Shown here: positions 25,509 through 56,833 of the stretch, in pieces | Numbering within the stretch: position 1 is the stretch's first letter | Layout: every line of letters starts with the position of its first letter | Position numbers and translations under genes: made by a program | Assembly (NCBI GenBank): GCA_003151625.1 | Contig: PLYC01000021.1 | Coordinates: forward strand, 16,235-80,234 | Length of the DNA stretch: 64,000 nucleotides | Reading direction: 5' to 3' | Origin: Candidatus Doudnabacteria bacterium | GTDB taxonomy: Bacteria; Patescibacteriota; Doudnabacteria; UBA920 | The notes under the pieces: generated by a model | Seen by the model: only the letters and a program-made list of their open reading frames with translations | Told to the model about the DNA's origin: nothing | Database searches by the model: none

Positions 25509-25561
25509 AAAATTATTTTAAAATTAAGAATCTTCGGTCAAAATATTATACACCCGAAAAC

Positions 25562-25720: not shown

Positions 25721-25740
25721 GGCTAAATTTTGTAATGTTT

Positions 25741-25915: not shown

Positions 25916-26247
25916 AAAAACATTAAGGTTTTAGTTGTTATGGTAATATGTTATCGCTTAGTAACAAGCTTACGGCCGCGCCCCTGCGGGGCGGCGGCCT
26001 GCGCCGTTGTCCCACTGGCCGCTTTGCTGGCCGTGGGACACGGCGTCTCAAGGTTGGATCTGGAAAATTGCGGTTAAATCAGCCGGGCAGTCAGGGCAGG
26101 TTCAGAGGGAAATTAGGCAGTAAACTTAAATGTTTGTCAAAGTCAAAATGGGGGCAAAATTAAAAAACAATCTTCACTACTTGAAGATTATCGTTTAGGT
26201 CAAAAACAAACAAAGAGTTAAGCGTGCTACATAAGAATTCTTCTGTG

Positions 26248-26991: not shown

Positions 26992-27154
26992 AATTTATAA
27001 ATCTAAATCGTCAACATCAATACCCAAAGCTTCCATTCGGTTTAAGGCCTCATCCGGGTCATCCTGAAATTGCTCGGCCAGTTCTTCCTTTAAGCCGTCC
27101 TCGTCCAATTCCATTCTGATTTCGTCTTCCAAATCTTCAAGAGGCATAAAATAA

Positions 27155-30286: not shown

Positions 30287-30298
30287 AGATTGTTGTAA

Positions 30299-31765: not shown

Positions 31766-31773
31766 AAGTGTAA

Positions 31774-34602: not shown

Positions 34603-34653
34603 ACTAATTTATATTTAAAAATAACTGCTCGCGCTTTAATTTTTAGTCCTTTG

Positions 34654-35922
34654 CTATTTCAATAAATCCTCAAGCTCACAGGAGAGCAGGGCGGATTTGT
34701 TAAGCACGATTTGTTCTTTCTGGTTTAGGTTGTCCGCGGTAAGTCTAATAACTTTTGTGATTATAGCGTTGCCAATAACAACGTGGTTGGTTTTCTTTAA
34801 GTAGTTTTCGGTTTTTTCGTAAAACAGTGTTATAAAGCGCTTTAGCTTGTCGCTTAGTTTATCTTTCATATTTCCCGTAACCAATGCGACTACTTTTTCG
34901 TTTATTTCCGTCGGTATATTCCCCTCCGCGAATACTATCCAATAATCGCTTATGGCATAGGCAAAGCGCACTGGCATTTTATCTTTAGTTTCGTAAAAAT
35001 AAACAAAACGGTAATTCTGGGAACTAAAATCCTGGCCAATGGCTATTTCGCGCAACTCGCCGACTGTATTTATATCGTAAGAGTTTACAAGCCGGAGATA
35101 ATTTTCCAGCCAAGTTTCAAGCCAATGCGTAATAAAAGTCTGATCCACAAATAGCGGAGTTAAATCCTGCTGTAAGTTTGTTTTGTTTACTTTGTTCATT
35201 TGCACGGTCAGCCGGTCAAACAGCGCCTGCAAATGCGTAACATCAACCTCCTTGGCTTTAAGATAGTCCAAATCGGGGACAGTTTTCTTTTCCATATACC
35301 ACAGCAGGTCGTAAATGTCGCGGCCTTTTTCTTCGTATATTTCCTTGCCCACGCCACGCTGTCCACGTAAAAATATAGCGGCAATTTTACTGGCCATAAG
35401 CGCAGACATATTGTAAGTCTTTATTACGAATGACAGCTGGTCGTGGTTTACGGGTATCCGTTCCGTAACCGCTTTGGGAGCCGTAAAATGGTTCAAATCA
35501 ATTTTAACGTGCACCTGTTTTGAAGGGTGGCTCATTCCCAGCTCGTCGCCGATAATGAATTTTAAAAGCAACCCGCGGCCGTTGGTAATTTTTATGTTCA
35601 AAAGATCCGGCCCGGTGCTGTAGGTTTCCAAAAAATGTTCCTGCAACGCTTCCTTAAGGTTGTTAAGCAAGCTGTCGGTAGGGGCTTCCGCAATTTCAAA
35701 ATCCAAATCAACGGACATTCTGTTCAACTCATGGCAAATGCGCAAGGCGGAGCCGCCGTACATAGTCCAATTGCTGTAGACCGGGTGGTGATAAATAAAA
35801 TTTAACAGGTAATACTGCAATTCCTCTTTTAAGGCGTTGCGCTGAACTTCAATATCCACCTGTCCGTAACGAGACAGGTCTTCAAGTTTTCTTTTTAGTA
35901 AAATAATTATTTGGTTATTCAT
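34654..35922 (-). CDS. AbiEii/AbiGii-family nucleotidyltransferase (DUF1814) toxin-like protein
   Basis: 'TMYGGSALRICHELNRMSVDLDF' matches the AbiEii NTase signature 'GGTAL...R.S.DLDF'. It overlaps the upstream partner by 8 bp. Confidence 0.65.
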   Translation of the reverse strand: MNNQIIILLKRKLEDLSRYGQVDIEVQRNALKEELQYYLLNFIYHHPVYSNWTMYGGSALRICHELNRMSVDLDFEIAEAPTDSLLNNLKEALQEHFLETYSTGPDLLNIKITNGRGLLLKFIIGDELGMSHPSKQVHVKIDLNHFTAPKAVTERIPVNHDQLSFVIKTYNMSALMASKIAAIFLRGQRGVGKEIYEEKGRDIYDLLWYMEKKTVPDLDYLKAKEVDVTHLQALFDRLTVQMNKVNKTNLQQDLTPLFVDQTFITHWLETWLENYLRLVNSYDINTVGELREIAIGQDFSSQNYRFVYFYETKDKMPVRFAYAISDYWIVFAEGNIPTEINEKVVALVTGNMKDKLSDKLKRFITLFYEKTENYLKKTNHVVIGNAIITKVIRLTADNLNQKEQIVLNKSALLSCELEDLLK

Positions 35923-36535
35923 TGTTTAAATATTTTTTAATCATCTCATAAAATAAAGTCTGCTCCTTTTTGTCCATTTCTTCAATATCAATGCGCAGGT
36001 CGCGGATTAGCCCATCCACCATTTCCGGCTTTATCCCCCGAAACTGTCTGGTCTTAAAATACAACAGGTCAAACAATGCTTTGGAAGGCGCGGCAATAAA
36101 AAAATCAAATTTTCCTTTTACCAAAGAGAATCCGGAAAATAATTCTTTTTTAATTGAATTGTAGCCAAAGTTTCCGGCCCGCGTCTGGTAGTCTCTGGTA
36201 ACTTTTAGCGTAACCGAGGTAATAGTCTGGATGGCTTCGGTTGTTAGTTCGTAATACTGCAAAGCCGCCCAGGAGCTGACGTAAGACGGCGTCCTAATGA
36301 CGTTGGCCAGATAAAATTTGTAGGAAATATCCGCCCTGTTGTTTTCGTAAAAGTAAGTTGTTGTATACAGCCCTTTTTTAAACTGGATAATATCCTTGGA
36401 CTTCAAAGAGCGGCCGATATAGCTATCAACCGTGGTATTTTTTAGGCCGTACTGCTTGCTTAACTGGTAAATAGCGCTTTTGTTAAAATACGGCAAACTC
36501 TTGAGCTGTTCTAACAATATTTCTCTATATTTCAT
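35915..36535 (-). CDS. Probable AbiEi-type antitoxin/transcriptional regulator, partner of AbiEii
   Basis: 206 aa immediately upstream of, and overlapping, the AbiEii-like gene. This is the typical AbiEi size and arrangement. No strong motif, so it is called by context. Confidence 0.45.
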   Translation of the reverse strand: MKYREILLEQLKSLPYFNKSAIYQLSKQYGLKNTTVDSYIGRSLKSKDIIQFKKGLYTTTYFYENNRADISYKFYLANVIRTPSYVSSWAALQYYELTTEAIQTITSVTLKVTRDYQTRAGNFGYNSIKKELFSGFSLVKGKFDFFIAAPSKALFDLLYFKTRQFRGIKPEMVDGLIRDLRIDIEEMDKKEQTLFYEMIKKYLNNE

Positions 36536-36631
36536 AATTGTGATGTAATCATAACAATGATGAAATACTTTGTCAATATGGATAGTTATTTGGATATAAA
36601 TTTAAGAAAATACCCTTTATTTATGGGTATT

Positions 36632-36790
36632 TTGCTTCCTTATGGCTTTTTATTGTAATTCTGGATCCCGTCCAGTCAAGGGTAAAACCAAATTATTTGC
36701 CATAGGCCATAAATTGGTTTTAATCCCGTTGACTGTCCAGGCGTTCCAGAATTTTGTTTTCGCCATAATCAGTAAGCAAAAAAGATTATG
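36632..36790 (+). promoter_or_regulatory. Conserved ~160-bp intergenic module, copy A (divergent region between abiEi and the radC-like gene)
   Basis: Aligns along its length with 38489-38651. Shared blocks: 'ttgcttccttatggctt', 'gtcaagggtaaa', 'tttatttgcc.t.ggccataaa', 'tttaatccc.ttgactg' and 'gccataat.agtaa'. The hairpin positions carry compensatory differences between the copies. Confidence 0.6.
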
Positions 36791-37270
36791 GAATACCAAG
36801 TCAATGTCAATTATCGGTTTCAAGCAGTTAATGAAAAGGAGGCAAAAGAAAAAGCTGTAAAATATTTAGCTAACACCCTAAAAGTCCAGCCAATGTCCAA
36901 GGCAGTATGCAGTCCCCTTGAGATTGCCGACCAGTGCTGGGATTTTAGGAAAAAGGACAAGGAGCACTTTTGCGTGTTCTTTTTAAATACCCAAAACCAA
37001 ATTATCAGCCGGGAGATTATTAGCATTGGAACTTTGAACGCCAGTCTAATTCACCCGCGGGAATGTTTTAGGACGGCAATATCTAAAAACTGCGCCTCAG
37101 TCATTTTTGTCCATAACCATCCAAGCGGCAGTCTAGAACCCTCGGACGAAGACATTGCCGTAACCAAGCGCCTTAAAGATGCCGGCAAACTTATCGGCAT
37201 CGAAGTTTTGGACCATGTGATTGTAACGGCTGAGTCCCATAAAAGCCTTAAGGAACAAGGCTTGGTATAA
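36788..37270 (+). CDS. RadC-like JAB-domain protein (DUF2466)
   Basis: JAMM/RadC signature 'VIFVHNHPSGSLEPSDEDIAVTKRLKDAGKLIGIEVLDHVIV'. Confidence 0.8.
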   Translation: MEYQVNVNYRFQAVNEKEAKEKAVKYLANTLKVQPMSKAVCSPLEIADQCWDFRKKDKEHFCVFFLNTQNQIISREIISIGTLNASLIHPRECFRTAISKNCASVIFVHNHPSGSLEPSDEDIAVTKRLKDAGKLIGIEVLDHVIVTAESHKSLKEQGLV

Positions 37271-37276
37271 GCCAGA

Positions 37277-38062
37277 CTAACTCTTTGAGCCCTTTTCGGT
37301 TTCGATTTTGAATTCTTCAAATTTGTTTTTATATGCAATAAAAAGATCTTGGGCCAAATCCAAAATTACTTTGGTATGTTTTTCCATTGTCGGCGATATT
37401 CTCTGACGCCTTGTTCTATAGCCTCGAGTTTTTAATAAGTTATCCGAGGTATTTATATCCATCTCGTGAATAATTTGATTCCTTACGGTAAAAGCATCTT
37501 TAAGTGCGTTCATTCTGTCAGCAGTGAATATCTTATTTGTGCTTAACCCAGAAGCGTCAGAAACCATACACAGTTGTCCAACGGACTGGAGGCTGTCTTT
37601 GGTCATACTGCTTAAGTATTCTTTTAAAAATATTTCCCTTGGATTTTGGTCTATCAAAGCCAAGGCAACTGTATTTAATATCTTTTCCGGACTCTTTTTG
37701 TCTATACCATTTTTAACGTAATTTCTAAATTTTTCTTGGGCATTTTTGTCTACAGTTATCAATTTTGAAAGTTTGGTTTTGGTCAGCTGTTTAACAAATA
37801 CGTCAAGTCCAGCGCAAGCAAAAATCAGCATTGCACGATATAGGTCTTGTTGGTAATGGGTAGATGGGCCACCCTTTGAGCCGCGTCTGATAATTTTATA
37901 CAGCAAATTGAAGTTATTAACGGACTCTGCTGTCTTTAGCAAAATATTGTATTCAAAACTAAAAAGACTGTCGTCCTTCTCAGCCGAAAGGTGAATTTTA
38001 TAAAATCCTAATTCCCGTTTTTTAACAGCCTTTTTCGCCTTACTGGATTTAAGCTTTGCCAT
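37277..38062 (-). CDS. Hypothetical 261-aa protein with a C-terminal HEPN-like Rx4HxxD motif
   Basis: 'AFTVRNQIIHEMD' resembles the HepT/HEPN motif R-N-x-x-x-H. The N-terminus is Lys-rich. Convergent with radC-like and preceded by a 112-aa ORF. Confidence 0.45.
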   Translation of the reverse strand: MAKLKSSKAKKAVKKRELGFYKIHLSAEKDDSLFSFEYNILLKTAESVNNFNLLYKIIRRGSKGGPSTHYQQDLYRAMLIFACAGLDVFVKQLTKTKLSKLITVDKNAQEKFRNYVKNGIDKKSPEKILNTVALALIDQNPREIFLKEYLSSMTKDSLQSVGQLCMVSDASGLSTNKIFTADRMNALKDAFTVRNQIIHEMDINTSDNLLKTRGYRTRRQRISPTMEKHTKVILDLAQDLFIAYKNKFEEFKIETEKGSKS

Positions 38063-38074
38063 AAAGATTTTACT

Positions 38075-38413
38075 TCAGGAAACATTATCGCCGTCAGATG
38101 GCATGGCCGTTGCAATTGCGTTGGTAAATAACGAATCACAGTGGACTAACAAAGACTCAATTAAACGCCCATGGTATATTGCGTAGACTTCGGAACTGAT
38201 AGTTTTGCTCTTAGGTTTAATAATAAAAAAGGTCAGCTCTTTGCCACTTTCTACTTCCGGACGGAACCACGCCAAATATTTCCATTGTTGCGCCGTATGT
38301 GTAAAATCGCCATCTTTATCATAAGACCAAGTGACTATTAGCCCGTCATCAATTGCCTTCTTAAAAGAGGATAGCACTTTATTCGGAGTGGAAGTTTCTA
38401 AATGTACGGCCAT
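38075..38413 (-). CDS. Hypothetical 112-aa protein, upstream partner of the HEPN-motif ORF
   Basis: ORF tightly linked to the HEPN-motif gene, with a 12-bp gap. No MNT (GSxxxGxxxxxSDxD) motif seen. Confidence 0.4.
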   Translation of the reverse strand: MAVHLETSTPNKVLSSFKKAIDDGLIVTWSYDKDGDFTHTAQQWKYLAWFRPEVESGKELTFFIIKPKSKTISSEVYAIYHGRLIESLLVHCDSLFTNAIATAMPSDGDNVS

Positions 38414-38488
38414 AAAATTTTCATTATTTATAGCACTATTTTAAAACTTTACTAATATAAAGTCAATTTTGCAAAAAAACCAATTCCT

Positions 38489-38651
38489 TTGCTTCCTTAT
38501 GGCTTCTCATTATACTGGCCGTTTACGGCCGGTCAAGGGTAAATTTCATTTATTTGCCGTGGGCCATAAAATCAATTTAATCCCTTGACTGCCGTAACCT
38601 GCGGCCAGTATATGATTGCCATAATAAGTAATCAAGAAAGGAGTTAATATG
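38489..38651 (+). promoter_or_regulatory. Conserved ~160-bp intergenic module, copy B
   Basis: See copy A. Hairpin 'ctggccgtttacggccgg' here versus 'ctggatcccgtccag' in A. A downstream 'ggccag' here versus 'tccag' in A. Confidence 0.6.
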
Positions 38652-41782: not shown

Positions 41783-42997
41783 CTATTCCTTAGTTTCATC
41801 AGCTTTAACTTCTTCAACTGCTACCGCTTCTTTTGAAGCTTCCGATGTTTCCGCAACAGTTTCCTCGCCACCTAGTTTTTCCCCGTTAATATCTATTTTC
41901 CATCCCGTCAAACGCGCGGCGAGGCGGACGTTTTGTCCGGCTTTGCCAATGGCTAAAGACAACTGATCTTCTAACACGCCGACTTTGGCTTCTTTGGCTT
42001 GGTCGTTTAATTGGACGTTTAAAATTTTGGCCGGTGAAAGAGCGTTGGCAATAAATTTTACCTGGTCATCGGAAAATTCTATAATATCAATTTTCTCCCC
42101 GCCCAGTTCGGCCATTACGGTTTGCACTCGGCTGCCCTTTTGCCCCACGCAACTGCCAATTGGGTCTATGCCGTCCTGGTTACTAAACACGGCAATTTTG
42201 GAGCGCGAACCCGCTTCCCTGGCCAGGGCTTTAATTTCCACACTGCCGTTAAAAATTTCCGGCACTTCCAGTTCAAAAAGCTTGCGCACCATATCGGGAT
42301 GCGAACGGGACAAAGTAATTTTTGGCCCCTTAGTAGCCGGTTCAACATGGAGGATTAAAACTTTTATGCGCTGGCCAATGGTATATTTTTCCCCGCGAAT
42401 TTGCTCGCTGGGGAACAGCACGCCGGCGGCTTTGCCTAAGTCTACCAGCACGGTGTCGCCTTCCACTCTCTGGACAACCCCGTTTTGCAAAGTGCGCTCT
42501 TTGGCTTTGAAATCGGAAAACTGAACATTTCTTTCGGCTTCGCGTAATTTTTGGATAATAACCTGCTTGGCGGTTTGCGCGGCAATGCGGCCGTACGAGG
42601 TGCCGGTTTTGGGAGTGATTTCCGTGCGGATTTCGTCACCGACTTTGTGTTTATGAGATTTTTTTCCGCCGGTCGTTCGAGACCCTGAGGGGTCCTCAGA
42701 CCCCCGAAGGGAGGAGGATCCGCCTTTGGCGGAAATTTCCTGCGCCGCTTCCAGGGTAATGAATTTTTGGGGGTCTTCTTCCGCCTCGGTCTCGGTTTCT
42801 ACCACGGTTTTTACGTCAAAAACTTTGGTAGCCATATTCTCCGGGTCAAATTCCACCACAATATTCTGGTTCTTCTCGCCGTAATCTTTCCGGAAAGCCG
42901 CGGCCAAAGACGCTTCTATCATAGAAACTAAATCCTGGCGGCTAATGCCTTTTTCTTCTGCTATTTGGTCTAAAGCTTGTTCTAGCTGTTCGTTCAT
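41783..42997 (-). CDS. nusA: Transcription termination/antitermination factor NusA, carrying an in-frame repeat-element insertion in the N-terminal linker
   Basis: S1 'VVQRVEGDTVLVDLG', and KH domains 'GSRSKIAVFS' and 'IGSCVGQKGSRVQTVMAELGGEKIDII'. The insert 'GGSSSLRGSEDPSGSRTTGGK' is shared with tsaD. Confidence 0.9.
   Translation of the reverse strand: MNEQLEQALDQIAEEKGISRQDLVSMIEASLAAAFRKDYGEKNQNIVVEFDPENMATKVFDVKTVVETETEAEEDPQKFITLEAAQEISAKGGSSSLRGSEDPSGSRTTGGKKSHKHKVGDEIRTEITPKTGTSYGRIAAQTAKQVIIQKLREAERNVQFSDFKAKERTLQNGVVQRVEGDTVLVDLGKAAGVLFPSEQIRGEKYTIGQRIKVLILHVEPATKGPKITLSRSHPDMVRKLFELEVPEIFNGSVEIKALAREAGSRSKIAVFSNQDGIDPIGSCVGQKGSRVQTVMAELGGEKIDIIEFSDDQVKFIANALSPAKILNVQLNDQAKEAKVGVLEDQLSLAIGKAGQNVRLAARLTGWKIDINGEKLGGEETVAETSEASKEAVAVEEVKADETKE
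42667..42733 (-). repeat. Palindromic ~63-bp element inserted in-frame in nusA
   Basis: 'ggcggatcc.cctcccttcg.gggtctgaggacccctcagggtctcgaacgaccggcgg' is near-identical to 53751-53815 in tsaD. Confidence 0.7.
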
Positions 42998-43004
42998 TTT
43001 AATA

Positions 43005-43083
43005 CAAACTAATTAACACGGATTTAGAAACGAATGAACACGGATCTGTGTTAATTCGTCTGCGATATTAGTGTTCATCCGTG
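43005..43083. repeat. About 80-bp promoter-proximal repeat, copy 1, upstream of nusA
   Basis: 'caaactaattaacacggatttagaaacgaat.aacac.gatc.gtgtt.attcgt.tgc..tattagtgtt.at.cgt' is shared with 44066-44146. Confidence 0.6.
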
Positions 43084-43158
43084 GTTTCTAATAAAAAAGA
43101 TGAGCATCGCTCATCCAATGAATCTGTACAATCTTTTCTTCAACTGGTAACTGTAAAC

Positions 43159-43661: not shown

Positions 43662-44060
43662 TTATTTAGGTAAATATTTCAGCCTCACCTGCTCTTTTTC
43701 CCAAACGTCTTTTTCTTTTTTATAATTTTTAAGCATACCGGTTAAAATTGCAACCAGCCAAACAAGTCCGATTAAAACAATTAATAAAGCCACAAAATGG
43801 GTGCCAAAAAACATGGCATTTTCATAACGGCACAGGTACCATAAAATTTCCACAAGCCCAATGCTCAAAAACAAATGATAAAACTTCTGCCTGTATTTGC
43901 CGTCCACGGGATTGGGCGCCAAAATCGAAGAAATTTTTAGCACAATGCTCAACAAAATTAAAATAACCCCACTCAAAAAAAACAGCTTTTCCCGCGGGCT
44001 AATGAAAGCTGTATTTATTTGAAAAAGGTTTTGGTAAGTAAATAACTGTTTTATGTTCAT
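43662..44060 (-). CDS. Hypothetical membrane protein (3-4 TM)
   Basis: Hydrophobic ORF. Preceded by repeat copy 2. Confidence 0.4.
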   Translation of the reverse strand: MNIKQLFTYQNLFQINTAFISPREKLFFLSGVILILLSIVLKISSILAPNPVDGKYRQKFYHLFLSIGLVEILWYLCRYENAMFFGTHFVALLIVLIGLVWLVAILTGMLKNYKKEKDVWEKEQVRLKYLPK

Positions 44061-44065
44061 ATAAA

Positions 44066-44146
44066 TTCAAACTAATTAACACGGATTTAGAAACGAATTT
44101 ACACAGATCAGTGTTCATTCGTTTGCAGTATTAGTGTTTATTCGTT
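44066..44146. repeat. About 80-bp promoter-proximal repeat, copy 2
   Basis: See 43005-43083. Confidence 0.6.
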
Positions 44147-44150
44147 ATTG

Positions 44151-44678
44151 CTACTTCTCGTACAATACCGCGTAGTGATAGCCATCGGCCTGGAGGTCTT
44201 TGTCTTTTCGGAAACCCGCGGACTGCAGCATAATTTCCAGTTTTTCCTGATCCAATCTCTTGTCCAGCGGCGGACCAAAAGGAGTGGCGGTGCGTTTCCA
44301 TTCTACCGCGACCACGCGCCCGCCGGATTTTAACACGCGATAAATGTTTTTAATCAATTCCTGTTTTTGGTCTATTTCGTGCAAAATACTGCCAATAATA
44401 ACCAAGTCGCAGGAGCCGGGCAAAATATCCAAAAGCGGTTTGCTTAAATTGGCCTGAATAACCCGCACATTTTTATATCCAAACTGGTTGGCAATGGAAA
44501 TTGTGGCGGCCAATTTAACCGTTTGTACGTCAACCGCGTAAACCGTTCCGGTGGGGCCAATCATTTGCGCGGCCGGTAAAACATAAAACCCGTTGCCGCA
44601 GCCCAAGTCTGCCACTGTCTGGCCCATCATAAGCCCTGTTTGCGCCATAACAGCGCTTGGATTTAAAAATTGACTCAT
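44151..44678 (-). CDS. Class I SAM-dependent methyltransferase
   Basis: Motif I 'VADLGCGNGFY', with acidic motifs II/III. Confidence 0.7.
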   Translation of the reverse strand: MSQFLNPSAVMAQTGLMMGQTVADLGCGNGFYVLPAAQMIGPTGTVYAVDVQTVKLAATISIANQFGYKNVRVIQANLSKPLLDILPGSCDLVIIGSILHEIDQKQELIKNIYRVLKSGGRVVAVEWKRTATPFGPPLDKRLDQEKLEIMLQSAGFRKDKDLQADGYHYAVLYEK

Positions 44679-44747
44679 ATAATTTTCTAAGAGAAAATTA
44701 GTGTGGATTAACTTTTGTTTCCTGATGAAACCTTTGTTGTTTATTAC

Positions 44748-45167
44748 TTACTTTAAAGCACCAATTACAGCTTTTAAGTATTCAGTGTAAGCCGGGATGA
44801 AAGAATTTTTTATGGAATCGTAAAATTTTCTGTTGTCTAACTCAAAATCATACTCATGGACAAGCCCATTGCGCAAACTCACGGAATCGACAAGTTTTTT
44901 ACACAAATCTCCCCCTATTATACCTAATTTATTCAGCCATTGAAAGGAATCTTTGTAAGTGTCCGGCGTTTTACCCTGTTTTTGCTGGACAATACTACTG
45001 TTAATGTCGCTAGACAACTCAACTAATAATTCCAAATTTCGCTCGCTAGACCTTATTAAAGTTACTGTTTTGTCAAAAACTTCAAACTCAACATCCGTCC
45101 ATTCCTTTAGTTCCTGAATGAACGAATGGATTTGTTCCGACTTTTTTTCTATAATTTCGTTACCCAT
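44748..45167 (-). CDS. hepT: HepT-like HEPN toxin (DUF86)
   Basis: 'LRNGLVHEYD' is the Rx4HxY HEPN motif. 139 aa. Overlaps the upstream MNT gene by 8 bp. Confidence 0.75.
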   Translation of the reverse strand: MGNEIIEKKSEQIHSFIQELKEWTDVEFEVFDKTVTLIRSSERNLELLVELSSDINSSIVQQKQGKTPDTYKDSFQWLNKLGIIGGDLCKKLVDSVSLRNGLVHEYDFELDNRKFYDSIKNSFIPAYTEYLKAVIGALK

Positions 45168-45525
45168 ATATTGACTGTAAATATTCGTGTCTCATTTTTC
45201 TGAACTTAGCCGTATGCTGATATCGCTTCCAAGCCGATAACTTAAATTTAAAAAAATCTTCTTCGCTACCCTTTAGCAATTTGCCGCTTTGGGCCGCTTC
45301 CATCTGGAGTAACGGCGAAGCCTCGTTTAAATCCACGAGATCAATTTTGTCTTCGGGAAATGAAAGCTCTTTGGAAAGATCTTCTCTTAATTTATCCTTA
45401 GTTTCCAAACTTAAAGGTTGTCCCGCCACCACGCCAATGTCAAAATCTGATGTAGCGTTGGCGCTCCCTTTGCTTTGAGAACCAAAAAGGATAAATAAAG
45501 ATGGGTTCGAAAATTTTGAAAACAT
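45160..45525 (-). CDS. mntA: MntA-like minimal nucleotidyltransferase antitoxin
   Basis: 'LFGSQSKGSANATSDFDIGVV' is the GSx9-11SDxD NTase motif. Confidence 0.75.
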   Translation of the reverse strand: MFSKFSNPSLFILFGSQSKGSANATSDFDIGVVAGQPLSLETKDKLREDLSKELSFPEDKIDLVDLNEASPLLQMEAAQSGKLLKGSEEDFFKFKLSAWKRYQHTAKFRKMRHEYLQSIYG

Positions 45526-45528
45526 TTT

Positions 45529-45882
45529 TTACCTCAACGGGTTTATTAAATAATTCCAAAAAAAGAATATAAAAAATAAGTTTAAAATTGTTACAAAGCT
45601 CCAATACAGAGCCACTAGAGCAACGCCAACGATGCGTTTTGTGTCTAAATATTTATATGCAATCCTGCCTAAGCCATAAATTAACGCTGCTAATAAAACC
45701 GTAAACAAACCAGATTCGCATATCATTCTACCGACAGTTACAAATACCCCGATTCGTGTCGTAGCCTGCTGAAGACCATATTGAGGTTGTCCAGAAAATA
45801 CACTATTAACTAACAAACTAATATATAGTAACCACCAGAAAATAACAGAATAAAATCCAAATTTTTGATTAAAAATTCTCAC
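45529..45882 (-). CDS. Hypothetical small membrane protein
   Basis: Three hydrophobic helices. No motif. Confidence 0.35.
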   Translation of the reverse strand: MRIFNQKFGFYSVIFWWLLYISLLVNSVFSGQPQYGLQQATTRIGVFVTVGRMICESGLFTVLLAALIYGLGRIAYKYLDTKRIVGVALVALYWSFVTILNLFFIFFFWNYLINPLR

Positions 45883-45936
45883 TGTTTATCTTATAAATTA
45901 GGAACTCACTTTTATTTAAAAATTAAAATAATTAGA

Positions 45937-50069: not shown

Positions 50070-50561
50070 ATGGCTAAACTAAAGTTCAAAAATTTAGGGA
50101 TCAAAATTAAGGGCTTCCCCAATAAACCCGACAAAAATATTCTGGAAAGCTTTCCCAACCGGCACCCTGAACAGTTATACTTGGTGTCTTTGGTGTGTTT
50201 GGAGTTTACCGCCATCTGCCCCATTACCGACCAGCCCGATTTCGGCAAATTTGAAATTGTTTACGTTCCCGGCAAAAAAATGGTTGAGTCAAAGTCTTTA
50301 AAACTTTATTTATTTTCCTTCCGCAATCACGGAGAATTCCACGAAGACGTTACGAATCGAATTTTTAAAGATTTATGGGGGCTTATGCAGCCAAAATTTA
50401 TGAGGATTTTGGGAGACTTTAACCTCCGTGGCGGGATTGCCATAAAACCATTGGTGCAAAAATTCGCCGCTGGCACAAAAAGCCCAGCCGAAAAATCAAT
50501 TTTACAAATGCTGCAAAGCTGGGATAGTTCAAAAAATAAAAACTCTTATGGACCAACTTAA
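50070..50561 (+). CDS. queF: NADPH-dependent 7-cyano-7-deazaguanine reductase (unimodular type)
   Basis: QueF motif 'EFTAICPITDQPDF' and 'ESKSLKLYLFSFRNHGEFHE'. Confidence 0.8.
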   Translation: MAKLKFKNLGIKIKGFPNKPDKNILESFPNRHPEQLYLVSLVCLEFTAICPITDQPDFGKFEIVYVPGKKMVESKSLKLYLFSFRNHGEFHEDVTNRIFKDLWGLMQPKFMRILGDFNLRGGIAIKPLVQKFAAGTKSPAEKSILQMLQSWDSSKNKNSYGPT

Positions 50562-51888
50562 TTACGGCCGCGCCTTAATGGGCGACAGTTTAGGATATCA
50601 TATTTTGTTTGCCCTGCTCGGTGTCGGCATTCCCCTGCTAATTTCCCTGTCTGAACTTATTGGGCTAATAAAAAAAGACAACCACTACTACACTATGGCT
50701 CGCCGCTGGAGCTTTGCCTTGGGAGTATTATTTGTGGTTGGGGCGGCCAGCGGCACCATAATTTCCATCCAACTTAACGCCTTGTGGCCAAGCTTTATGA
50801 CGCTGGCCGGCAAAATCATTGGTCTGCCGTTTTTTTTGGAAGGCTTTGCCTTTTTTATAGAAACAATTTTTCTGGGAATTTACTTGTACTCCTGGGACAG
50901 ATTTTCCAACAAATGGACACACTGGCTGTGTAGTTTGCCAATTGTTTTGGCTTCCGCCACTTCCGCGTTTTTTATTACCACGGCCAATGCCTGGATGAAC
51001 AACCCGGCGGGATTTAGCTACAGCAACGGAGTTGTCTCGGGCATCAACCCCATAAAAGCCATGTTTAACGCGGCCACGCCAACCGAGACTTCCCACTCCA
51101 TTTTTGCCTACTACTTAACCACGGTTTTGGCTTTTGCCGGTTTATACGCCATTTTTTTATGGCGGGAAAAACTCGATATTCAGCAAAAAATATATTACAA
51201 AAAAGTCATCGGCATGGCCATGGCTTTAGGGTTAATTTTTGCCTGCGCTACAGCTTTGACCGGAGACTTCTCCGGCAAATATCTGGCTAAATATGAACCG
51301 CTAAAACTGGCCGCGGCCGAAGGCTTGCAACAAAGCGGGAGCGATGCGGATTTGTCTGTGGGAGGAATTTTCCACCGCGATGAAAATGAACCCGGCGAAA
51401 AGCTGGACGGCGCGCTGCGGTTTCCCGGAATGCTAAGCTTTTTGGCCACCGGTAGTATTCACGGTTTTGTCCGGGGCTTAAATTCCTTTGACCCAAATAC
51501 CTGGCCGCCGTTATGGATTCACTATATGTTCGACTTCATGGTTTTTATCGGTATATTTTTAACTACGGTACCCTTAATATTTTTATTACTGCTCTGGAAA
51601 AAACGACAATGGGCGTTCAATAAATTTTTATTGCTTTTAACAATTGTCGCGGGGATTTCCGGATTTTTTGCCGTTGAATTCGGCTGGATATTAACCGAAG
51701 TCGGCCGCCAGCCTTATGCCATCCGCGGCATAATGACAACAACCCAGGCTTTTACCACCAACCCTGACGTCGCCCGATGGGGATTTATTTTTCCGTTAAT
51801 GTACTTGGCCTTATTTATAATTACTCCTTGGATATTGCTCAGATATTACAAAAAAAATAAGCTGGATTTGAAAAAAAATTATTTTTAG
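50548..51888 (+). CDS. cydA: Cytochrome bd ubiquinol oxidase subunit I
   Basis: The N-terminal 150 aa parallel E. coli CydA ('HILFALLGVGIP...GLPFFLEGFAFFIETIFLGIYLYSWDRF...ANAWMNNPAGF'). Its start overlaps the queF stop by 14 bp. Confidence 0.8.
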   Translation: MDQLNYGRALMGDSLGYHILFALLGVGIPLLISLSELIGLIKKDNHYYTMARRWSFALGVLFVVGAASGTIISIQLNALWPSFMTLAGKIIGLPFFLEGFAFFIETIFLGIYLYSWDRFSNKWTHWLCSLPIVLASATSAFFITTANAWMNNPAGFSYSNGVVSGINPIKAMFNAATPTETSHSIFAYYLTTVLAFAGLYAIFLWREKLDIQQKIYYKKVIGMAMALGLIFACATALTGDFSGKYLAKYEPLKLAAAEGLQQSGSDADLSVGGIFHRDENEPGEKLDGALRFPGMLSFLATGSIHGFVRGLNSFDPNTWPPLWIHYMFDFMVFIGIFLTTVPLIFLLLLWKKRQWAFNKFLLLLTIVAGISGFFAVEFGWILTEVGRQPYAIRGIMTTTQAFTTNPDVARWGFIFPLMYLALFIITPWILLRYYKKNKLDLKKNYF

Positions 51889-51892
51889 TATT

Positions 51893-52816
51893 ATGCAGCC
51901 GTTTGCTCTAATTTTATCTTCCATCTTTTTATACTGCTATATTATTCTTTCGTCTATAGAATTCGGGGCGTCAGTTTTTAATATTTACCCCGAACTGCTC
52001 GGCGACCACTCTAAGTTAAATGAGTATCTAAGTCCGGTCTGGGAAACCACCAATGTTTTTTTGGTATTTTTTATAGTTGGAATTTTTACTTTTTTCCCCG
52101 GCTCTGTAATTTACTACGGCACCAATTTAATGCCGCTGCTGTTTACCGCGCTGGTTTTTGCCGTACTTCGCGTTGTTTGTATGCTGCTAGTTTTTTACGG
52201 CGAAATCCAGAACCAATACATTAATCTGCTTTTTGTTATTTCCCGCTTTTTCTTTCCTTTAATCCTTTGCGGTTTTTACTTTTATTGTCTAACGGGACAG
52301 CTTGCTATAATCCCGGAAAGTTTTTTGGGCTTGGCTTTATGGTTGTTTGCCATAGCCGTAATTTTGCTTATTTCCGCGACATTTTTTCAATATTATTCTG
52401 GCGTCAATCTAAAAAAATATATTGAAAAACTGGCCATTTTATTTACTTTGGCGCTGGCTGTTTTAATTACCGCCTTAGCCAACAGCGCACCTTACTTGTT
52501 TGCCAATGGCTACCAAAATTTATTAGCAGGATTAGTCTTACTAATAAGCGCGGCGGGGTTTATTTGGATTTTTTACAAACAAAAATTTCTACATTTATTT
52601 TTGTCCGTTTGCAGTATTATTGGGACAATCTTTTTTAGCTTAATTAGCCTCCATTTGCCTTACTTAATCTATCCAAATGTAACGGTTTACAGCGCTTTCA
52701 CCGATCCGGCCGTTTTTAAAATTATGATGTGGTGCCTGCCGTTCGGGTTAATTGTTGTTGCCCCGGCATTATTTTTGCTGTATTCCCTGTTTGGTTCTAA
52801 ACAATCCCATAACTGA
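51893..52816 (+). CDS. cydB: Cytochrome bd oxidase subunit II (short form)
   Basis: Immediately downstream of cydA. A CydB-like 'SPVWETTNVFLVFFIVGIFTFFP', cf. 'W..VWLI..G...F..FP'. Eight or nine TM segments. Confidence 0.6.
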   Translation: MQPFALILSSIFLYCYIILSSIEFGASVFNIYPELLGDHSKLNEYLSPVWETTNVFLVFFIVGIFTFFPGSVIYYGTNLMPLLFTALVFAVLRVVCMLLVFYGEIQNQYINLLFVISRFFFPLILCGFYFYCLTGQLAIIPESFLGLALWLFAIAVILLISATFFQYYSGVNLKKYIEKLAILFTLALAVLITALANSAPYLFANGYQNLLAGLVLLISAAGFIWIFYKQKFLHLFLSVCSIIGTIFFSLISLHLPYLIYPNVTVYSAFTDPAVFKIMMWCLPFGLIVVAPALFLLYSLFGSKQSHN

Positions 52817-52827
52817 TTTTAAAAAAA

Positions 52828-54000
52828 ATGACAAAAAAAATTTTAGCCATAGAAACCAGTTGTGACGAAACAGCGGCGGCAGTTTTGGAATTGCGCGATA
52901 GCAAAACTTGGCCGAAAATAGCTTCGCTTTCTTCCGTGGTCAAATCCCAAATTTCCCTCCATAAATCTTTTGGCGGGGTGGTGCCGGAAGTTGCGGCGCG
53001 GGCGCACGTAAAAAATATTTTACCGGTCGTAAAAAAAGTCCTGTCAGACAGCAATTTAACAAAGACAAGTGAAATTCACGGCCGTGAATTTCACTTGTCT
53101 TTGCAAAAAATAGATTATATTGCGGTAACCGTAGGACCTGGTTTAATTCCCTCACTAATTGTGGGCGTGGAATTTGCCAAAGCGCTTTCACTGGCAACCG
53201 GCAAACCGATTATCCCTGTCAACCATATGTTGGGACACCTGTACTCGCCATTCGGAAAATTGGAAAATGAGGAAATTGAAAAATTATTTCCAATGATTTC
53301 ACTAATAGTTTCGGGTGGTCACACAATAATTGTGCTTATAAAAAATATTAAAGAATACAAAGTCCTGGGACAAACCGTGGACGATGCCGCGGGAGAAGCT
53401 TTTGATAAAGTCGCAAAACTCCTTGGCCTCCCCTATCCCGGAGGCCCCGAGGTCAGTAGGCTGGCCAAACTGTCTAAATCTTCCGCGATTGTGTTTCCGC
53501 GGCCAATGATAAACAGTAAAAATTATGATTTTTCTTTTTCCGGCCTAAAAACCGCGGTACTATATTATTTGCGCGACAACCCAAACGCGAAAAAAGAAGA
53601 CGTCTGTAAAGCTTTCCAGGAAGCCGCCGTAGACGTCCTGGCTACCAAAACCATGCGCGCCGCAAAAGAATATGGGGCAAAGTCAGTCAGCCTGTCCGGA
53701 GGCGTAGCCGCTAACGAACCCTTACGGAGCGCCTTAAATCTTTCCGCCAGAGGCGGATCCGCCTCCCTTCGAGGGTCTGAGGACCCCTCAGGGTCTCGAA
53801 CGACCGGCGGAAAATCTAAAATCTTAAACCCGTCTCGTTCGACGCGAGCCGAGGCGGATCTGAATTTTTTTGTTCCCCAAAAAAATTTATGCACTGACAA
53901 CGCCGAAATGATAGGCGTGGCCGCCTGCTTTATGCTGCACAACGGGTTTAAGCCAAAAAACTACAAGCAAATTAAGGCCGACCCGAACCTTGAACTTTAA
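52828..54000 (+). CDS. tsaD: tRNA N6-adenosine threonylcarbamoyltransferase (Kae1/Gcp family), with an in-frame ~35-aa repeat-element insertion near the C-terminus
   Basis: 'ILAIETSCDETAAAV', 'GVVPEVAARAHV', 'GPGLIPSLIVGVEFAK', 'SGGVAAN' and 'LCTDNAEMIG'. The insertion 'RGGSASLRGSEDPSGSRTTGGKSKILNPSRSTRAEAD' sits between 'ALNLSA' and 'LNFFVP'. Confidence 0.85.
   Translation: MTKKILAIETSCDETAAAVLELRDSKTWPKIASLSSVVKSQISLHKSFGGVVPEVAARAHVKNILPVVKKVLSDSNLTKTSEIHGREFHLSLQKIDYIAVTVGPGLIPSLIVGVEFAKALSLATGKPIIPVNHMLGHLYSPFGKLENEEIEKLFPMISLIVSGGHTIIVLIKNIKEYKVLGQTVDDAAGEAFDKVAKLLGLPYPGGPEVSRLAKLSKSSAIVFPRPMINSKNYDFSFSGLKTAVLYYLRDNPNAKKEDVCKAFQEAAVDVLATKTMRAAKEYGAKSVSLSGGVAANEPLRSALNLSARGGSASLRGSEDPSGSRTTGGKSKILNPSRSTRAEADLNFFVPQKNLCTDNAEMIGVAACFMLHNGFKPKNYKQIKADPNLEL
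53751..53860 (+). repeat. Palindromic element (~63-bp core plus ~40-bp partial duplication) inserted in-frame in tsaD, flanked by GAGGCGGATC direct repeats
   Basis: The core is near-identical to the nusA copy. 'gaggcggatc' occurs at 53751 and 53851. An internal near-duplicate, 'gtctcgaacgac' / 'gtctcgttcgac'. Confidence 0.7.
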
Positions 54001-54179: not shown

Positions 54180-54647
54180 GTGAACACCACTTTTGTGGTG
54201 TTTTTATTTAACAACAAACTTATGGAAACCTATCAAACTCCAATATCTGTCAAAGCAATAATTTTCGAAGGCTCCAAGGTATGGTTAAGAAAAAACGAAA
54301 GAAACGAATGGGAACTGCCGGGAGGAAAACTGGAAAAACAAGAACAGCCGGAACAGACAGTTACCCGGGAAATTAAAGAGGAGCTAGATTCAGATATTGA
54401 AATAATTGAGATTATACAAGCCTATGTTTACCAAATAACAAAATCGGCAGATGAGCAATACGGAGTAATGGTTATAACATATCTGTGCAAATTATTATCT
54501 TTGGGCAAAAACTTTGAAACCCAAGGCGAAGCAGGAACTGCAGAATTCAAAAAAATTTCTATCAAAGATATTCCGGCTCTAAAGATGCCTTCGTTTTACA
54601 AAGATTCTATACAAAAAGCTTGGAACAAATTAAACAAAACATTATGA
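54180..54647 (+). CDS. NUDIX hydrolase (the start may be the internal Met at 54222)
   Basis: Nudix box 'GGKLEKQEQPEQTVTREIKEELD'. The stop overlaps the valS ATG (ATGA). Confidence 0.7.
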   Translation: MNTTFVVFLFNNKLMETYQTPISVKAIIFEGSKVWLRKNERNEWELPGGKLEKQEQPEQTVTREIKEELDSDIEIIEIIQAYVYQITKSADEQYGVMVITYLCKLLSLGKNFETQGEAGTAEFKKISIKDIPALKMPSFYKDSIQKAWNKLNKTL

Positions 54648-56833
54648 TCGAACTTGATAAAGCCTACGACCATTCCACGGTCGAAGAAAAAATTTATAAG
54701 ATGTGGGAGACTTCGGGATATTTTAATCCGGACAAGCTTCCGGGCGACCGTAAACAACCCTATACCATAATTATGCCCCCGCCGAATGCCAACGCTCCAA
54801 TGCATTTGGGGCACGCTTTGTTTGTGACCATAGAAGACATCCTAATAAGGTATAAAAGGATGCAAGGATACAAGACGCTATGGCAGCCGGGCACCGACCA
54901 CGCGGGTTTTGAAACCCAGGTGGTTTTTGAAAAAAAACTGGAAAAGGAAGGCCGGTCGCGTTTTAAAATGCAACGGGAAGAATTTTACAAGGAAATTTGG
55001 GAGTTTGTCCAAAGCAACAAGCATATAACAGAAAACGGACTGCGCCGTCTCGGAGCATCCTGCGATTGGGACAGGAACATTTTTACCCTGGACCCGGAAA
55101 TCGTAAGAATAGTCTACGCGACTTTTAAAAAAATGCACGAAGACGGGCTAATGTACCGCGGCGACCGCATTGGCAACTGGTGTTTTAAGCACCAAACCGC
55201 TTTGTCTGACTTGGAAACCAAATACGAAGAACGCGTTGAGCCATTTTATTATTTTAAATATGGCCCGTTTACCATAGGCACCAGCCGCCCGGAAACCAAG
55301 TTTGGTGACAAATACGTGGTTATGCATCCGAACGATAAACGTTACGCCCAATATAAAAACGGCGATACTTTTGAAGCGGAATGGATTAACGGGTCAATAA
55401 AGGCAACCATTATTAAAGACGAAGCCGTGGATATGGAATTCGGTAGTGGGGTTATGACTATTACGCCGTGGCATGATCCCGTGGACTTTGATTTGGCGCA
55501 AAAGCACAAGCTGGACAAAGAACAAATAATCGACAAATTTGGGAAGCTTTTGCCGATTGCCGGTGAGTTCGCGGGAATGAAAAACGCGATTGCCCGCCCT
55601 CTAATTGTGGAAAAATTAAAAAACAAAACCCTCCTGGTAAAAGTTGATGAGAATTACAAGCACAATGTAAATGTTTGCTATAAATGCGGCGCCATAATAG
55701 AGCCGCAAATAATCCCCCAGTGGTTCGTGGCTATGGCCAAACCGCTCCCCGATGGTCGGCCAAGCCTCCGCGATATGGCCATTAACGCCATAAAAAATAA
55801 GGAAGTAGAGATTGTCACGGAAAAATTCGAAAAAATTTTTATGCACTGGATGGAGAACCTCCGCGACTGGCCGGTAAGCAGGCAAATTTGGTGGGGAATC
55901 CCGATTCCGGTAAAATATTGTGTCGATTGCAAAGAGGTTATTGTAGACACGGACGATTCCATAAAAGTATGTCCAAAATGCCAATCACCCAAACTCGAAA
56001 AGGATCAGGATACTTTTGACACCTGGTTTTCCAGCGGTCAGTGGCCATATGCGACTTTAATGGCGAACGATGTTAAAAGAGGCACTAAGGACTTTGAAAA
56101 TTATTTTCCAACGCAAGTCATGGAAACCGGTTGGGATATTTTATTTTTCTGGGTGGCCAGAATGGTAATGATGTCGTATTACCGCACCGGAAAACAACCT
56201 TTTGAAAAAGTTTATTTGCATGGTTTGGTGCGAGACAAAGACCGGCAAAAAATGAGCAAAAGCAAAGGTAATGTTATTGACCCGCTTGGTGTTATTGATA
56301 CCTATGGCTGTGACGCTTTGCGCTTTGCGCTCATATTTTCCACCTCGGCCGGCAACGACATTCCCCTGGCTGAAGACAAAATTAAAGGCATGAAACATTT
56401 TGCCAACAAGCTTTGGAATATTGCGAGATACATTTTGGCAAATGTAAGTGTCCCCATTCCCCCCCTTGCAGAGGGGGGGCTAGGGGGGGTTACCGATGCA
56501 GACAAAGAGATTTTAACCAAACTCAATCAAACAATTAAAAATACCACGGTCCACCTGGATAATTTTCGCCTGCACGAAGCCGCCCAGGAAATTTACCAGT
56601 TTACCTGGCACGAGCTGGCGGATATTTACGTGGAAGCGTCCAAAAAACAGCTGGCTGATGAAACCTTAAAAGAAAATACCCAAAAATTGCTGCTGCATAA
56701 TTTAATTAACATCATAAAATTACTCCATCCGTTTATGCCATTCATTACCGAGGAACTTTGGGGAATACTGGGACAAGCCGATTTATTGGGTCGTCATGAC
56801 TTGCTAATAATTGAAAAATGGCCTATAGTATAA
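54644..56833 (+). CDS. valS: Valine--tRNA ligase, compact form (the ORF opens at 54620; the likely start is 54644, MIELDKAYD...)
   Basis: HIGH motif 'PNANAPMHLGHA' and 'WQPGTDHAGFETQ'. ValRS-specific 'TSRPETKFGD' and 'ITPWHDPVDFD'. 'KMSKSKGNVIDP'. Confidence 0.85.
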   Translation: MIELDKAYDHSTVEEKIYKMWETSGYFNPDKLPGDRKQPYTIIMPPPNANAPMHLGHALFVTIEDILIRYKRMQGYKTLWQPGTDHAGFETQVVFEKKLEKEGRSRFKMQREEFYKEIWEFVQSNKHITENGLRRLGASCDWDRNIFTLDPEIVRIVYATFKKMHEDGLMYRGDRIGNWCFKHQTALSDLETKYEERVEPFYYFKYGPFTIGTSRPETKFGDKYVVMHPNDKRYAQYKNGDTFEAEWINGSIKATIIKDEAVDMEFGSGVMTITPWHDPVDFDLAQKHKLDKEQIIDKFGKLLPIAGEFAGMKNAIARPLIVEKLKNKTLLVKVDENYKHNVNVCYKCGAIIEPQIIPQWFVAMAKPLPDGRPSLRDMAINAIKNKEVEIVTEKFEKIFMHWMENLRDWPVSRQIWWGIPIPVKYCVDCKEVIVDTDDSIKVCPKCQSPKLEKDQDTFDTWFSSGQWPYATLMANDVKRGTKDFENYFPTQVMETGWDILFFWVARMVMMSYYRTGKQPFEKVYLHGLVRDKDRQKMSKSKGNVIDPLGVIDTYGCDALRFALIFSTSAGNDIPLAEDKIKGMKHFANKLWNIARYILANVSVPIPPLAEGGLGGVTDADKEILTKLNQTIKNTTVHLDNFRLHEAAQEIYQFTWHELADIYVEASKKQLADETLKENTQKLLLHNLINIIKLLHPFMPFITEELWGILGQADLLGRHDLLIIEKWPIV
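56459..56490 (+). repeat. C7-ttgcaga-G7-ctag-G7 palindromic G/C-tract element inside valS, translated as 'PIPPLAEGGLGG'
   Basis: Direct read. It resembles the C6-TGT-G6 site at 9907-9921. Confidence 0.55.

Follow-up and report, generated by a model that had tools for sequence, protein, structure and literature searches.

The tsaD gene of a Candidatus Doudnabacteria genome (52828-54000, + strand, 390 aa) carries two independent, recent insertions of GC-rich palindromes in a single loop of the encoded protein, which leads from its last long helix to the strand ahead of the CTDN motif. The gene is located on contig PLYC01000021.1 (assembly GCA_003151625.1), of which a stretch of 64,000 nt was analyzed and is referred to below as the window; all coordinates count from its first base. 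The first insertion is a 69-nt composite, in which a 39-nt core is seated in one loop of a 30-bp carrier palindrome, and the second is a different hairpin of 30 nt. We interpret these modules as selfish mini-palindromes that resemble the palindromic elements of Rickettsia and are translated through as part of their host proteins, and assign this interpretation a probability of about 78%.

Two insertions in one loop of TsaD

Between ALNL and LNFFVPQKNLCTDNAE, the TsaD protein of the window possesses 33 extra residues, which derive from inserts of 69 and 30 nt. Among 120 TsaD homologues, the closest one, P0002 (80% identity overall, 87% in a later multiple alignment), reads ALNL-KSKILN-LNFFVPQ in the same region, that is, it has no inserts. 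The DNA that encodes P0002 (contig L038) has almost identical flanks, ...GCC TTA AAT CT/A AAA TCT AAA ATC TTA AA/T CTG AAT TTT..., where slashes mark the two insertion points. Written by segments this empty site is ...AATCT/AAAATCTAAAATCTTAA/ATCTGAAT..., and the window differs from it there only by the 69-nt and 30-nt insertions. An earlier note on this DNA had proposed an insertion, and the empty site in the closest relative bears this out, together with about 113 of the 120 homologues, which have no insert in the loop. The note had further described one contiguous block of about 35 residues with limits at 53751 and 53860. The extra residues are indeed present, but the native K-S-K-I-L-N (53812-53828) stands in their middle, and the alignment places the boundaries at 53742/3-53810/1 and 53828/9-53857/8.

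Insertion 1 (TCCGCC...GGCGGA; 53743-53811, + strand) is 69 nt long and encodes S306-G328 (SARGGSASLRGSEDPSGSRTTGG); a strict alignment gives 53742-53810, with an uncertainty of 1 nt. It starts with hairpin A of the carrier, TCCGCC-AGA-GGCGGA (53743-53757, +), which holds most of the first copy of the 10-mer GAGGCGGATC discussed below and shows compensatory changes at three of its six pairs across copies. The 5' arm of hairpin B, TCCGCC, and the loop bases TC follow (53758-53765, +), with the core directly after TC. The core, CCTTCGAGGGTCTGAGGACCCCTCAGGGTCTCGAACGAC (53766-53804, +), forms an imperfect 15-bp hairpin with an ACC loop, encodes (S)LRGSEDPSGSRTT and has the canonical sequence of many metagenome-assembled genomes (MAGs) of the Candidate Phyla Radiation (CPR). 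The third loop base of hairpin B, C, and its 3' arm GGCGGA (53805-53811, +) complete the composite. The next 17 nt, AAATCTAAAATCTTAAA (53812-53828, +), are native tsaD sequence encoding K-S-K-I-L-N and belong to a native tandem of four (A)AAATCT units that is found in the empty site too. Insertion 2 (53829-53858, +, or 53828-53857, given an ambiguity of 1 nt) is the hairpin CCCGTCTCG-TTCGACGCGAGC-CGAGGCGGA, which encodes PSRSTRAEAD.

Aligned to the L038 empty site, neither insertion shows a target-site duplication; the AAATCT motifs that flank insertion 1 are part of the pre-existing tandem. The insert stretch has a G+C content of ~60%, compared with a window average of 43%, and the insert region folds at -60.1 kcal/mol (z = -4.1 against shuffles).

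The 30-nt hairpin has a second copy in the window, CCCGTCTCG-ACTAGGCGGAGC-CGAGGCGGA (725-754, +), located in the disordered C-terminal tail of ssb (297-812, +). Both arms are identical between the two copies, and 8 of the 12 central bases differ; read in the frame of the tsaD copy, the ssb copy gives PSRLGGAEAE, compared with PSRSTRAEAD. The pattern CCGTCTCG-N(6-30)-CGAGGCGG has two matches in the window (tsaD, and ssb at 726-753), with 0.00 expected by chance, and the element was not found in the other 90 loci collected in this study, except for a duplicate record of the window itself. The 30-nt hairpin belongs to a different, lineage-restricted family from the composite.

The catalytic motifs of TsaD are intact, with H133, H137 and D357 in invariant columns of the multiple alignment. 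In an AlphaFold2 prediction with 64 homologues (mean predicted local distance difference test score, pLDDT, 87.5), residues 308-345 have no secondary structure and lie between a helix (297-307) and a strand (346-348), and pLDDT is below 50 at 315-340. The inserts would add disordered stretches of 23 and 10 residues rich in Ser, Gly, Arg and Pro; the gene is intact and most likely functional. The loop appears permissive, because other CPR TsaDs (P0036/P0049/P0093, P0111, P0067, P0009) carry other short inserts there, apparently GC-rich and palindromic (CLAGRQA, PVRRSLGEGG, ISRLQSPEPSADGG, AL..SEAEG), of which PVRRSLGEGG is at the position of the 30-nt insert of the window; the loop may be either a hot spot of insertion or a place that tolerates it.

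Contigs L038 and L091 originate from one Joint Genome Institute (JGI) sample, abut each other at about window position 50070 and share 94-97% identity with the window over ~10 kb; they probably represent one relative genome. Since this relative possesses the nusA copy of the composite (on L091) and an empty tsaD (on L038), the tsaD insertions postdate the split between the two genomes; they are recent and mark a difference from the nearest relative. Over ~10 kb of the window compared with L091, no further small hairpin indels were found, only gene-content differences.

Among segments not shared with this relative is a stretch of ~2.3 kb between queF and tsaD (50535-52930), which is missing in L038, where queF abuts tsaD. 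It contains open reading frames (ORFs) at 50548-51888 and 51893-52816, and a gene call on the identical ENA contig matches Pfam Cyt_bd_oxida_II. Another segment, 44732-45936, is missing from L091 and encodes a toxin-antitoxin pair, in which a HepT-like RNase (44751-45167) is accompanied by a Pol-beta/MNT nucleotidyltransferase (45163-45525); near window position 46800, a different insertion, of ~550 nt, is found in L091. In valS (54620-56833, +), the GC-rich palindrome CCCCCCC-TTGCAGA-GGGGGGG, followed by CTAGGGGGGG, is found at 56446-56491 and encodes PIPPLAEGGLGGV; in its place, L038 has a sequence of similar length that is AT-richer and unrelated. The loop of the valS palindrome resembles that of the Uhrbacteria hairpin ATCCCC-TTGCAGAA-GGGGAT, which is core-bearing in locus L026.

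The carrier, the core and their distribution

The earlier note had recognized a palindromic element common to tsaD and nusA, and this observation stands: in a blastn comparison of the tsaD region with the window, 53741-53814 matched 42662-42735 (- strand) over 74 nt with 96% identity, and the part downstream of 53814 was not found in nusA. The second composite is located at 42665-42733 (-) in nusA (41783-42997, -), and its core (42672-42710) has one substitution. Relative to their genes, the two copies have the same orientation and frame, SA[KR]GGS[AS]SLRGSEDPSGSRTTGGK.

The carrier is a perfect palindrome of 30 bp, TCCGCC-NNN-GGCGGA-TCCGCC-NNN-GGCGGA, centred on GGATCC, and the composite is this carrier with the 39-nt core in its second triloop, after TC. 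Compared with the second loop of carrier-only copies, TCN, the core is placed between TC and N. The same architecture is observed in 18 distinct copies: a 6+3+6-nt hairpin A is followed by the 6-nt 5' arm of hairpin B, TC, the 39-nt core, a single variable base and the 6-nt 3' arm of hairpin B, and all 18 are exactly 69 nt long. The arms differ between copies in a compensating manner (TCCGCC/GGCGGA, CCAGCC/GGCTGG, TCTCCC/GGGAGA, TCCACC/GGTGGA). Changes on both sides occur at five stem pairs of hairpins A and B, a count that was reached by at most 1 of 500 shuffles and to which slid registers came nowhere near. The carrier alone, without the core, was found at 12 loci, including two TsaD genes with the carrier in the same loop as in the window (P0014 and P0017, on L039 and L040).

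Immediately 5' of the core there is always a C, in most cases with a T before it (TC^). The edges of the core exist in three length-preserving variants, CC-TTCGAG...CGAACGAC, CCGTTC-AG...CGAACGAC and CCGTTCGAG...CGAA-GAC. The sequences that flank the core differ between copies, yet they pair with each other.

To collect copies of the core, we scanned one genome per species and then metagenomes for its exact central 22-mer, taking the taxon labels of MAGs as given. The 22-mer was found at 37 loci of species-representative genomes labeled as Candidatus Doudnabacteria, Uhrbacteria (15 contigs of one MAG), Peribacteria, Saccharibacteria and Kerfeldbacteria, as well as three 'Gammaproteobacteria'. 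The metagenome scan provided ~45 further true copies, and unique core copies with full context number 69 in all. An nhmmer search of all loci with a core profile added one near-exact copy and a few fragments, so the loci contain few core copies of intermediate age. No exact match to the 22-mer was present in viral contigs, and blastn with the composite gave none in plasmids or phages; no transfer vector was found.

All modules have lengths that are multiples of 3 nt (30, 39, 69 and 30), and the core is free of stop codons in two of the three frames in each orientation. A long open frame spans about half of the unique core copies, many of them in identifiable housekeeping genes. Sense in-frame copies were found in genes for SecA, SMC, RtcB, IleRS, a CDC48-like ATPase, GyrB, an IscU-like protein and a glycosyltransferase, and antisense in-frame copies in Pth, RluD and two others. 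A search for genes interrupted in a stop-containing frame yielded four candidates, none of them convincing: two overlap real genes that are otherwise framed, and two are low-complexity nonsense.

In comparisons by eye, the core did not fit known structured elements. The hammerhead pattern (CUGANGA...GAAA) was rejected since the core has UCUC, four bases, before GAA and an unsuitable spacing; the spacing was also unfit for the twister and HDV architectures, and attC sites are conserved at their ends and not at their centre. Some core copies in Peribacteria (L003, L015, L025) and in L023/L064 stand amid short tandem heptads, CCTACAA being found on both sides in L023, and GGCAGAA with GTCAGTA forming very long outer stems in L025. 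The heptads may be another kind of carrier, or reflect a target preference for simple repeats.

Evidence for movement, decay and alternative explanations

Carrier-only, carrier-plus-core and empty states of the modules exist at orthologous sites. The NusA site occurs in all three: it is empty in L093 (P0126, 86% identity), holds the carrier only in L092 (P0123, 91%), and the carrier with the core in the window and in L091 (P0122, 99%); the filled and empty alignments show no target-site duplication. Several other NusA genes are carrier-only at that site, and further ones have a carrier a few codons away. The IleRS gene of L063 contains one carrier-only and one carrier-plus-core copy. The Uhrbacteria MAG contains four empty copies of the hairpin ATCCCCTT-G[CA]AG-AAGGGGAT and one whose loop holds the core. 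The site CTCCTC^GCAAAGAC is in its empty form in L027 and in its filled form in L029 and L033; no target duplication accompanies the core insertions in Uhrbacteria hairpins. Paralogous Cys-rich proteins of Peribacteria end in ...ERPE[TI]VYCE, with or without the element.

Resident copies of the core decay. The tsaD core is canonical, the older nusA core of the window has one change, and in the orthologous nusA core of L091 three of the 39 nt are substituted, with a pair broken by one of the changes; the gene sequence displayed beside the latter has ~4 differences in ~110 nt by our own count. Because resident copies decay, cores would be identical between lineages through copies that are still mobile or through transfer, and not because every site has a function.

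The states described above could be explained differently if the composite were the only mobile unit and the carrier-only copies and 'empty' hairpins were precise core deletions, for example by slippage across the hairpin. Long hairpins are deletion-prone, the three nusA states alone cannot tell the direction of change, and 18 copies with identical junctions are what movement as one unit would be expected to produce. We regard this explanation as improbable, since the core is also found in unrelated hairpins (Uhrbacteria ATCCCCTT/AAGGGGAT and CTCCTC^GCAAAG, the heptad stems of Peribacteria and a zinc-ribbon gene family). It would need carriers that diverged past recognition while the core stayed identical, yet resident cores decay. 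In addition, the empty forms are exact within an ambiguity of 1-2 nt and outnumber the filled ones. A more far-reaching proposal, which we put forward tentatively and at somewhat less than even odds, is that the core moves independently, as one of the smallest mobile modules known, and invades the loops of pre-existing hairpins after C (mostly TC^N) without duplication. It would be kept near-identical across CPR classes by a conserved enzyme acting on folded single-stranded DNA (ssDNA), and together with the 30-bp carriers it would form a nested hairpin-in-hairpin ecosystem that repeatedly lengthens essential CPR proteins.

A structured RNA, such as a cis-regulatory hairpin, a processing site, a ribozyme or a ribosome-bypass signal like that of T4 gene 60 or the mitochondrial 'byp', is quite unlikely to account for these elements. 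The fold is very stable (-60 kcal/mol, z = -4.1), the core hairpin has G-U pairs on one strand only, several copies are located directly upstream of start codons, and stems change in a compensatory manner; moreover, Lang and colleagues reportedly described in 2014 mobile GC-rich hairpins that are bypassed by ribosomes in yeast mitochondria. However, both orientations are found within real genes, so no single RNA strand is consistently expressed, and the lengths in multiples of 3 and the stop-free frames of coding copies would be needless if the RNA were removed or skipped. Searches against Rfam 15 gave nothing at gathering scores for the whole window and nothing relevant at E up to 10 for 53650-53950, where the best match, AS-traI (21 bits against a cutoff of 99), is irrelevant. 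The orthologous resident copy has gathered substitutions, including the pair-breaking one. The mixed orientations, the always-open frames, the Rfam result and the decaying orthologous core together argue against a role at the RNA level.

The earlier note had favored a single element of ~100 nt, bounded by the 10-bp GAGGCGGATC as a target-site duplication or terminal repeat and containing a partial internal duplication made by slippage or repair, and we find this explanation hardly tenable. Both copies of the 10-mer exist (53750-53759, one base before the proposed start at 53751, and 53851-53860), and an exact 10-mer repeat is unusual, being obtained in 2 of 300 shuffles of 53700-53900; it arises because both hairpins are built on a GGCGGA arm. 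In copy 1, the last part of loop 1 is followed by the 3' arm of hairpin A and the first two bases of hairpin B, and in copy 2, the last 8 nt (3' arm) of the different 30-nt element are followed by native TC; this composition does not agree with a terminal repeat. Nor is the pair a target-site duplication, as the empty site contains no copy of GAGGCGGATC and shows the 17 native bases between two separate insertions. With a spacing of 101 nt, a number not divisible by 3, the copies delimit no excisable in-frame unit, and removal of one repeat with the intervening sequence would break the frame. Furthermore, the nusA copy stops at GGCGGA, without the downstream part, and that part constitutes an element in its own right, with a further copy in ssb. 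The internally similar stretches GTCTCGAACGAC (53793) and GTCTCGTTCGAC (53832) are both present, but the resemblance of gtctcgaacgac to gtctcgttcgac is no more than chance provides (a 12-mer with two mismatches or fewer appeared in 94 of 300 shuffles of the same interval) and does not indicate duplication by slippage. Finally, although loop length varies among CPR homologues, it is scarcely conceivable that the extra loop is ancestral or adaptive TsaD sequence lost by relatives, or an assembly artefact, given that nearly all homologues, the closest included, lack it, the same DNA is found in nusA and in unrelated genes of other lineages, an identical protein is called on the ENA and NCBI contigs, and related copies come from many independent assemblies.

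Under the interpretation as selfish mini-palindromes, the elements would be non-autonomous and mobilized in trans, with the carrier, the core and probably the composite each able to move. Insertions in permissive surface loops would simply be translated, and the elements could persist in gene-dense CPR genomes because the lengths of the modules are divisible by 3 and two of the three frames per orientation contain no stop codon. The near-identity of cores between lineages would reflect constraint on mobile copies, transfer between lineages, or both. The most speculative step concerns the enzyme, which may be one that recognizes folded ssDNA hairpins and acts in trans; the best fit is an HUH/Y1 enzyme of the 'peel-and-paste' type, from insertion sequences (ISs) of the IS200-IS605 group or a REP-associated tyrosine transposase (RAYT), and we consider this whole step doubtful. 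The points in its favor are the lack of duplication, the exact pairs of empty and filled sites, and insertion 3' of a short loop motif ending in C, mostly TC; it fits better than DDE transposases, as these leave duplications. The two-base TC 'target' is weak evidence for insertion of the IS200/IS605 type. GC skew in the window tracks the orientation of genes, and no direction of replication can be read from it.

Several points weigh against this interpretation. Translation through the inserts is read from open frames. The scans required an exact 19-22-mer, so they captured too few of the older, diverged copies, and part of the core's apparent invariance stems from this requirement. The three 'Gammaproteobacteria' labels of MAGs are unverified, and one of them (L028) is doubtful, because its GyrB (689 aa), the one compared with GyrB of E. 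coli, aligns with the latter only to about residue 555; the core in this gene has a CCAGCC/GGCTGG carrier and lies roughly where E. coli GyrB has a large lineage-specific insertion. At each single site, the change between carrier-only and carrier-plus-core could be an insertion or a precise deletion. No Y1/HUH or IS transposase was found among the 30 scanned ORFs of the window, and in a tblastn search of 685 kb of loci, with an IS200 TnpA query, only one of the 93 loci, the Saccharibacteria contig L013, had an IS200-like Y1_Tnp gene, the ends of which are unrelated to the core. This gene (1457-1846; Pfam PF01797, E = 6e-23) has an apparently frameshifted N-terminus and is located ~1.1 kb from the core copy of the contig (318-358). 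It is not flanked by cores and has its own hairpins on either side, CCCCAGC-TTTA-GCTGGGG and GCCACCAGC-ATAC-GCTGGTGGC.

The window contains further repeats and a putative island. Other strong GC-rich hairpins are found at 13301-13473, 17576-17661, 20598-20649 and 25953-26057 (for example, GTCCGCCCGCC-TAA-GGCGGGCGGAC), and the pair at 25953-26057 folds at -61 kcal/mol. Intergenic direct repeats of 97-99 nt are located at 42992-43090 and 44055-44153, and at 36631-36727 and 38488-38584 (84% and 75% identical). A further repeat of this group is at 1860-1904, and the short motif AATTAACACGGAT recurs four times; all of these are unrelated to the palindromic elements. A 978-aa ORF at 2694-5630 (-) has an internal repeat with a period of ~258 nt, in six to seven copies at 60-76% identity, and probably encodes a repetitive surface protein. 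The region 23939-38413, where G+C drops to 36-40%, looks like an integrated island. It includes a tRNA (23939-24010), the 3' end of which is overlapped by a large serine recombinase gene (23976-25508, -), a type I restriction-modification system (HsdR, 27158-30286; HsdS, 31777-33024; HsdM, 33028-34602), AbiEii (34657-35922), RadC (36788-37267) and a RiboL-PSP HEPN protein (37280-38062).

Comparison with known palindromic elements

Palindromes inserted in frame are a curiosity of textbooks, with few known cases outside Rickettsia and some mitochondria. In behaviour, the present modules come nearest to the Rickettsia elements and to mitochondrial GC clusters. The CPR/Patescibacteria case shows that such insertion recurs in tiny gene-dense genomes, with smaller, stacked modules. 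Palindromic modules may explain some of the short Gly/Ser/Arg/Pro-rich inserts of CPR proteins, which matter for annotation, alignment, phylogeny and structure prediction. The series of empty, carrier-only and carrier-plus-core sites provides natural material for finding the mobilizing enzyme.

The Rickettsia palindromic elements (RPEs) are ~100-150 bp long, form about ten Rickettsia-specific families and encode a conserved peptide (Ogata et al. 2000, as summarized in PMC10969869). As far as that summary goes, RPEs resemble the elements described here in being palindromes found in frame in unrelated housekeeping genes and in intergenic DNA, in their translation into additional surface peptides, in living in a host-dependent bacterium whose genome is small and gene-dense, and in having no known transposase. 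The in-frame read-through of RPEs is matched, as judged from open frames, in tsaD, nusA and ssb of the window, and elsewhere in SecA, SMC, RtcB, IleRS, GyrB, Pth and RluD. In contrast to RPEs, the modules here measure 30, 39 and 69 nt, are nested, occur across several CPR classes and have no apparent sequence relation to RPEs; the distinction is made by size and lineage, the host being a CPR bacterium whose NusA is closest to Candidatus Doudnabacteria.

Other parallels come from mitochondria, in which Allomyces has double-hairpin elements (DHEs) and Magnusiomyces has byps; the latter need not be multiples of 3 nt, as ribosomes hop over them. Mitochondrial GC clusters are likewise GC-rich palindromes of 30-50 nt in AT-richer compact genomes, sometimes located in coding regions and transferred between species. 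The yeast mitochondrial GC42, of 42 nt, proliferates, crosses species, merges into composites and has a putative AG/TAG target duplication (PMC4478555), and sponge mitochondrial hairpin elements are further GC-rich mobile palindromes (PMC2800124). This merging into composites is the closest parallel to the carrier and core, as a functional resemblance only. The mitochondrial elements differ in being organellar, in the duplication of GC42, compared with none here, and in the free length of byps, whereas the frame is always open here.

For Nostoc, Elhai and colleagues are said to have described in 2008 small dispersed repeats (SDRs), mobile-looking palindromic repeats of 21-27 nt nested in other repeats or hairpins, with no transposase assigned. 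These would be similar to the present modules in lying far below the size of MITEs (miniature transposable elements with inverted repeats), in their nesting and in the lack of an assigned transposase. SDRs are cyanobacterial and mostly intergenic, have other sequences and, unlike the modules described here, are not known in frame in conserved proteins.

Repetitive extragenic palindromes (REPs) and their paired forms, REPINs, are extragenic and carry a GTAG or CGTC tag, and each family has a RAYT gene flanked by its own REPs (PMC3116915, PMC3733652). The REP/RAYT and IS200/IS605 systems share with the present elements imperfect palindromes of 20-40 nt and the lack of a target duplication; their recognition of ssDNA hairpins and insertion 3' of a short motif may be further common traits (PMC3116915, PMC3733652). 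In contrast to REPs, neither the core, CC(G)TTC...CGAACGAC, nor the carrier, TCCGCC...GGCGGA, has a GTAG or CGTC tag, and many copies are intragenic. The elements IS1397 and ISKpn1 insert into the loops of enterobacterial palindromic units (as cited in PMC3116915). According to that citation, the target is again the loop of a pre-existing repeated hairpin, but these are full-length members of the IS3 family with a transposase and a target duplication, compared with a 39-nt hairpin here. The TCCGCC...GGCGGA arms correspond to the terminal inverted repeats of MITEs, trivially so for a palindrome. The fixed-length target duplication of MITEs is absent at both tsaD insertions, at nusA and at the Uhrbacteria core sites. 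A parent IS sharing ends with the elements was found neither among the 30 window ORFs nor in the 685 kb of loci, where the L013 ends are unrelated, whole genomes being outside this search.

The elements thus differ in at least one tested feature from each of these groups: from RPEs in size, lineage and, apparently, sequence, from MITEs in the lack of duplication, and from REPs in the tag and the extragenic location. A full-text literature search revealed no prior description of palindromic, MITE or in-frame elements in CPR/Patescibacteria. Of most interest are the nested architecture of 30 and 39 nt and a core that is shared between classes; the tsaD case by itself is an ordinary consequence of such elements.

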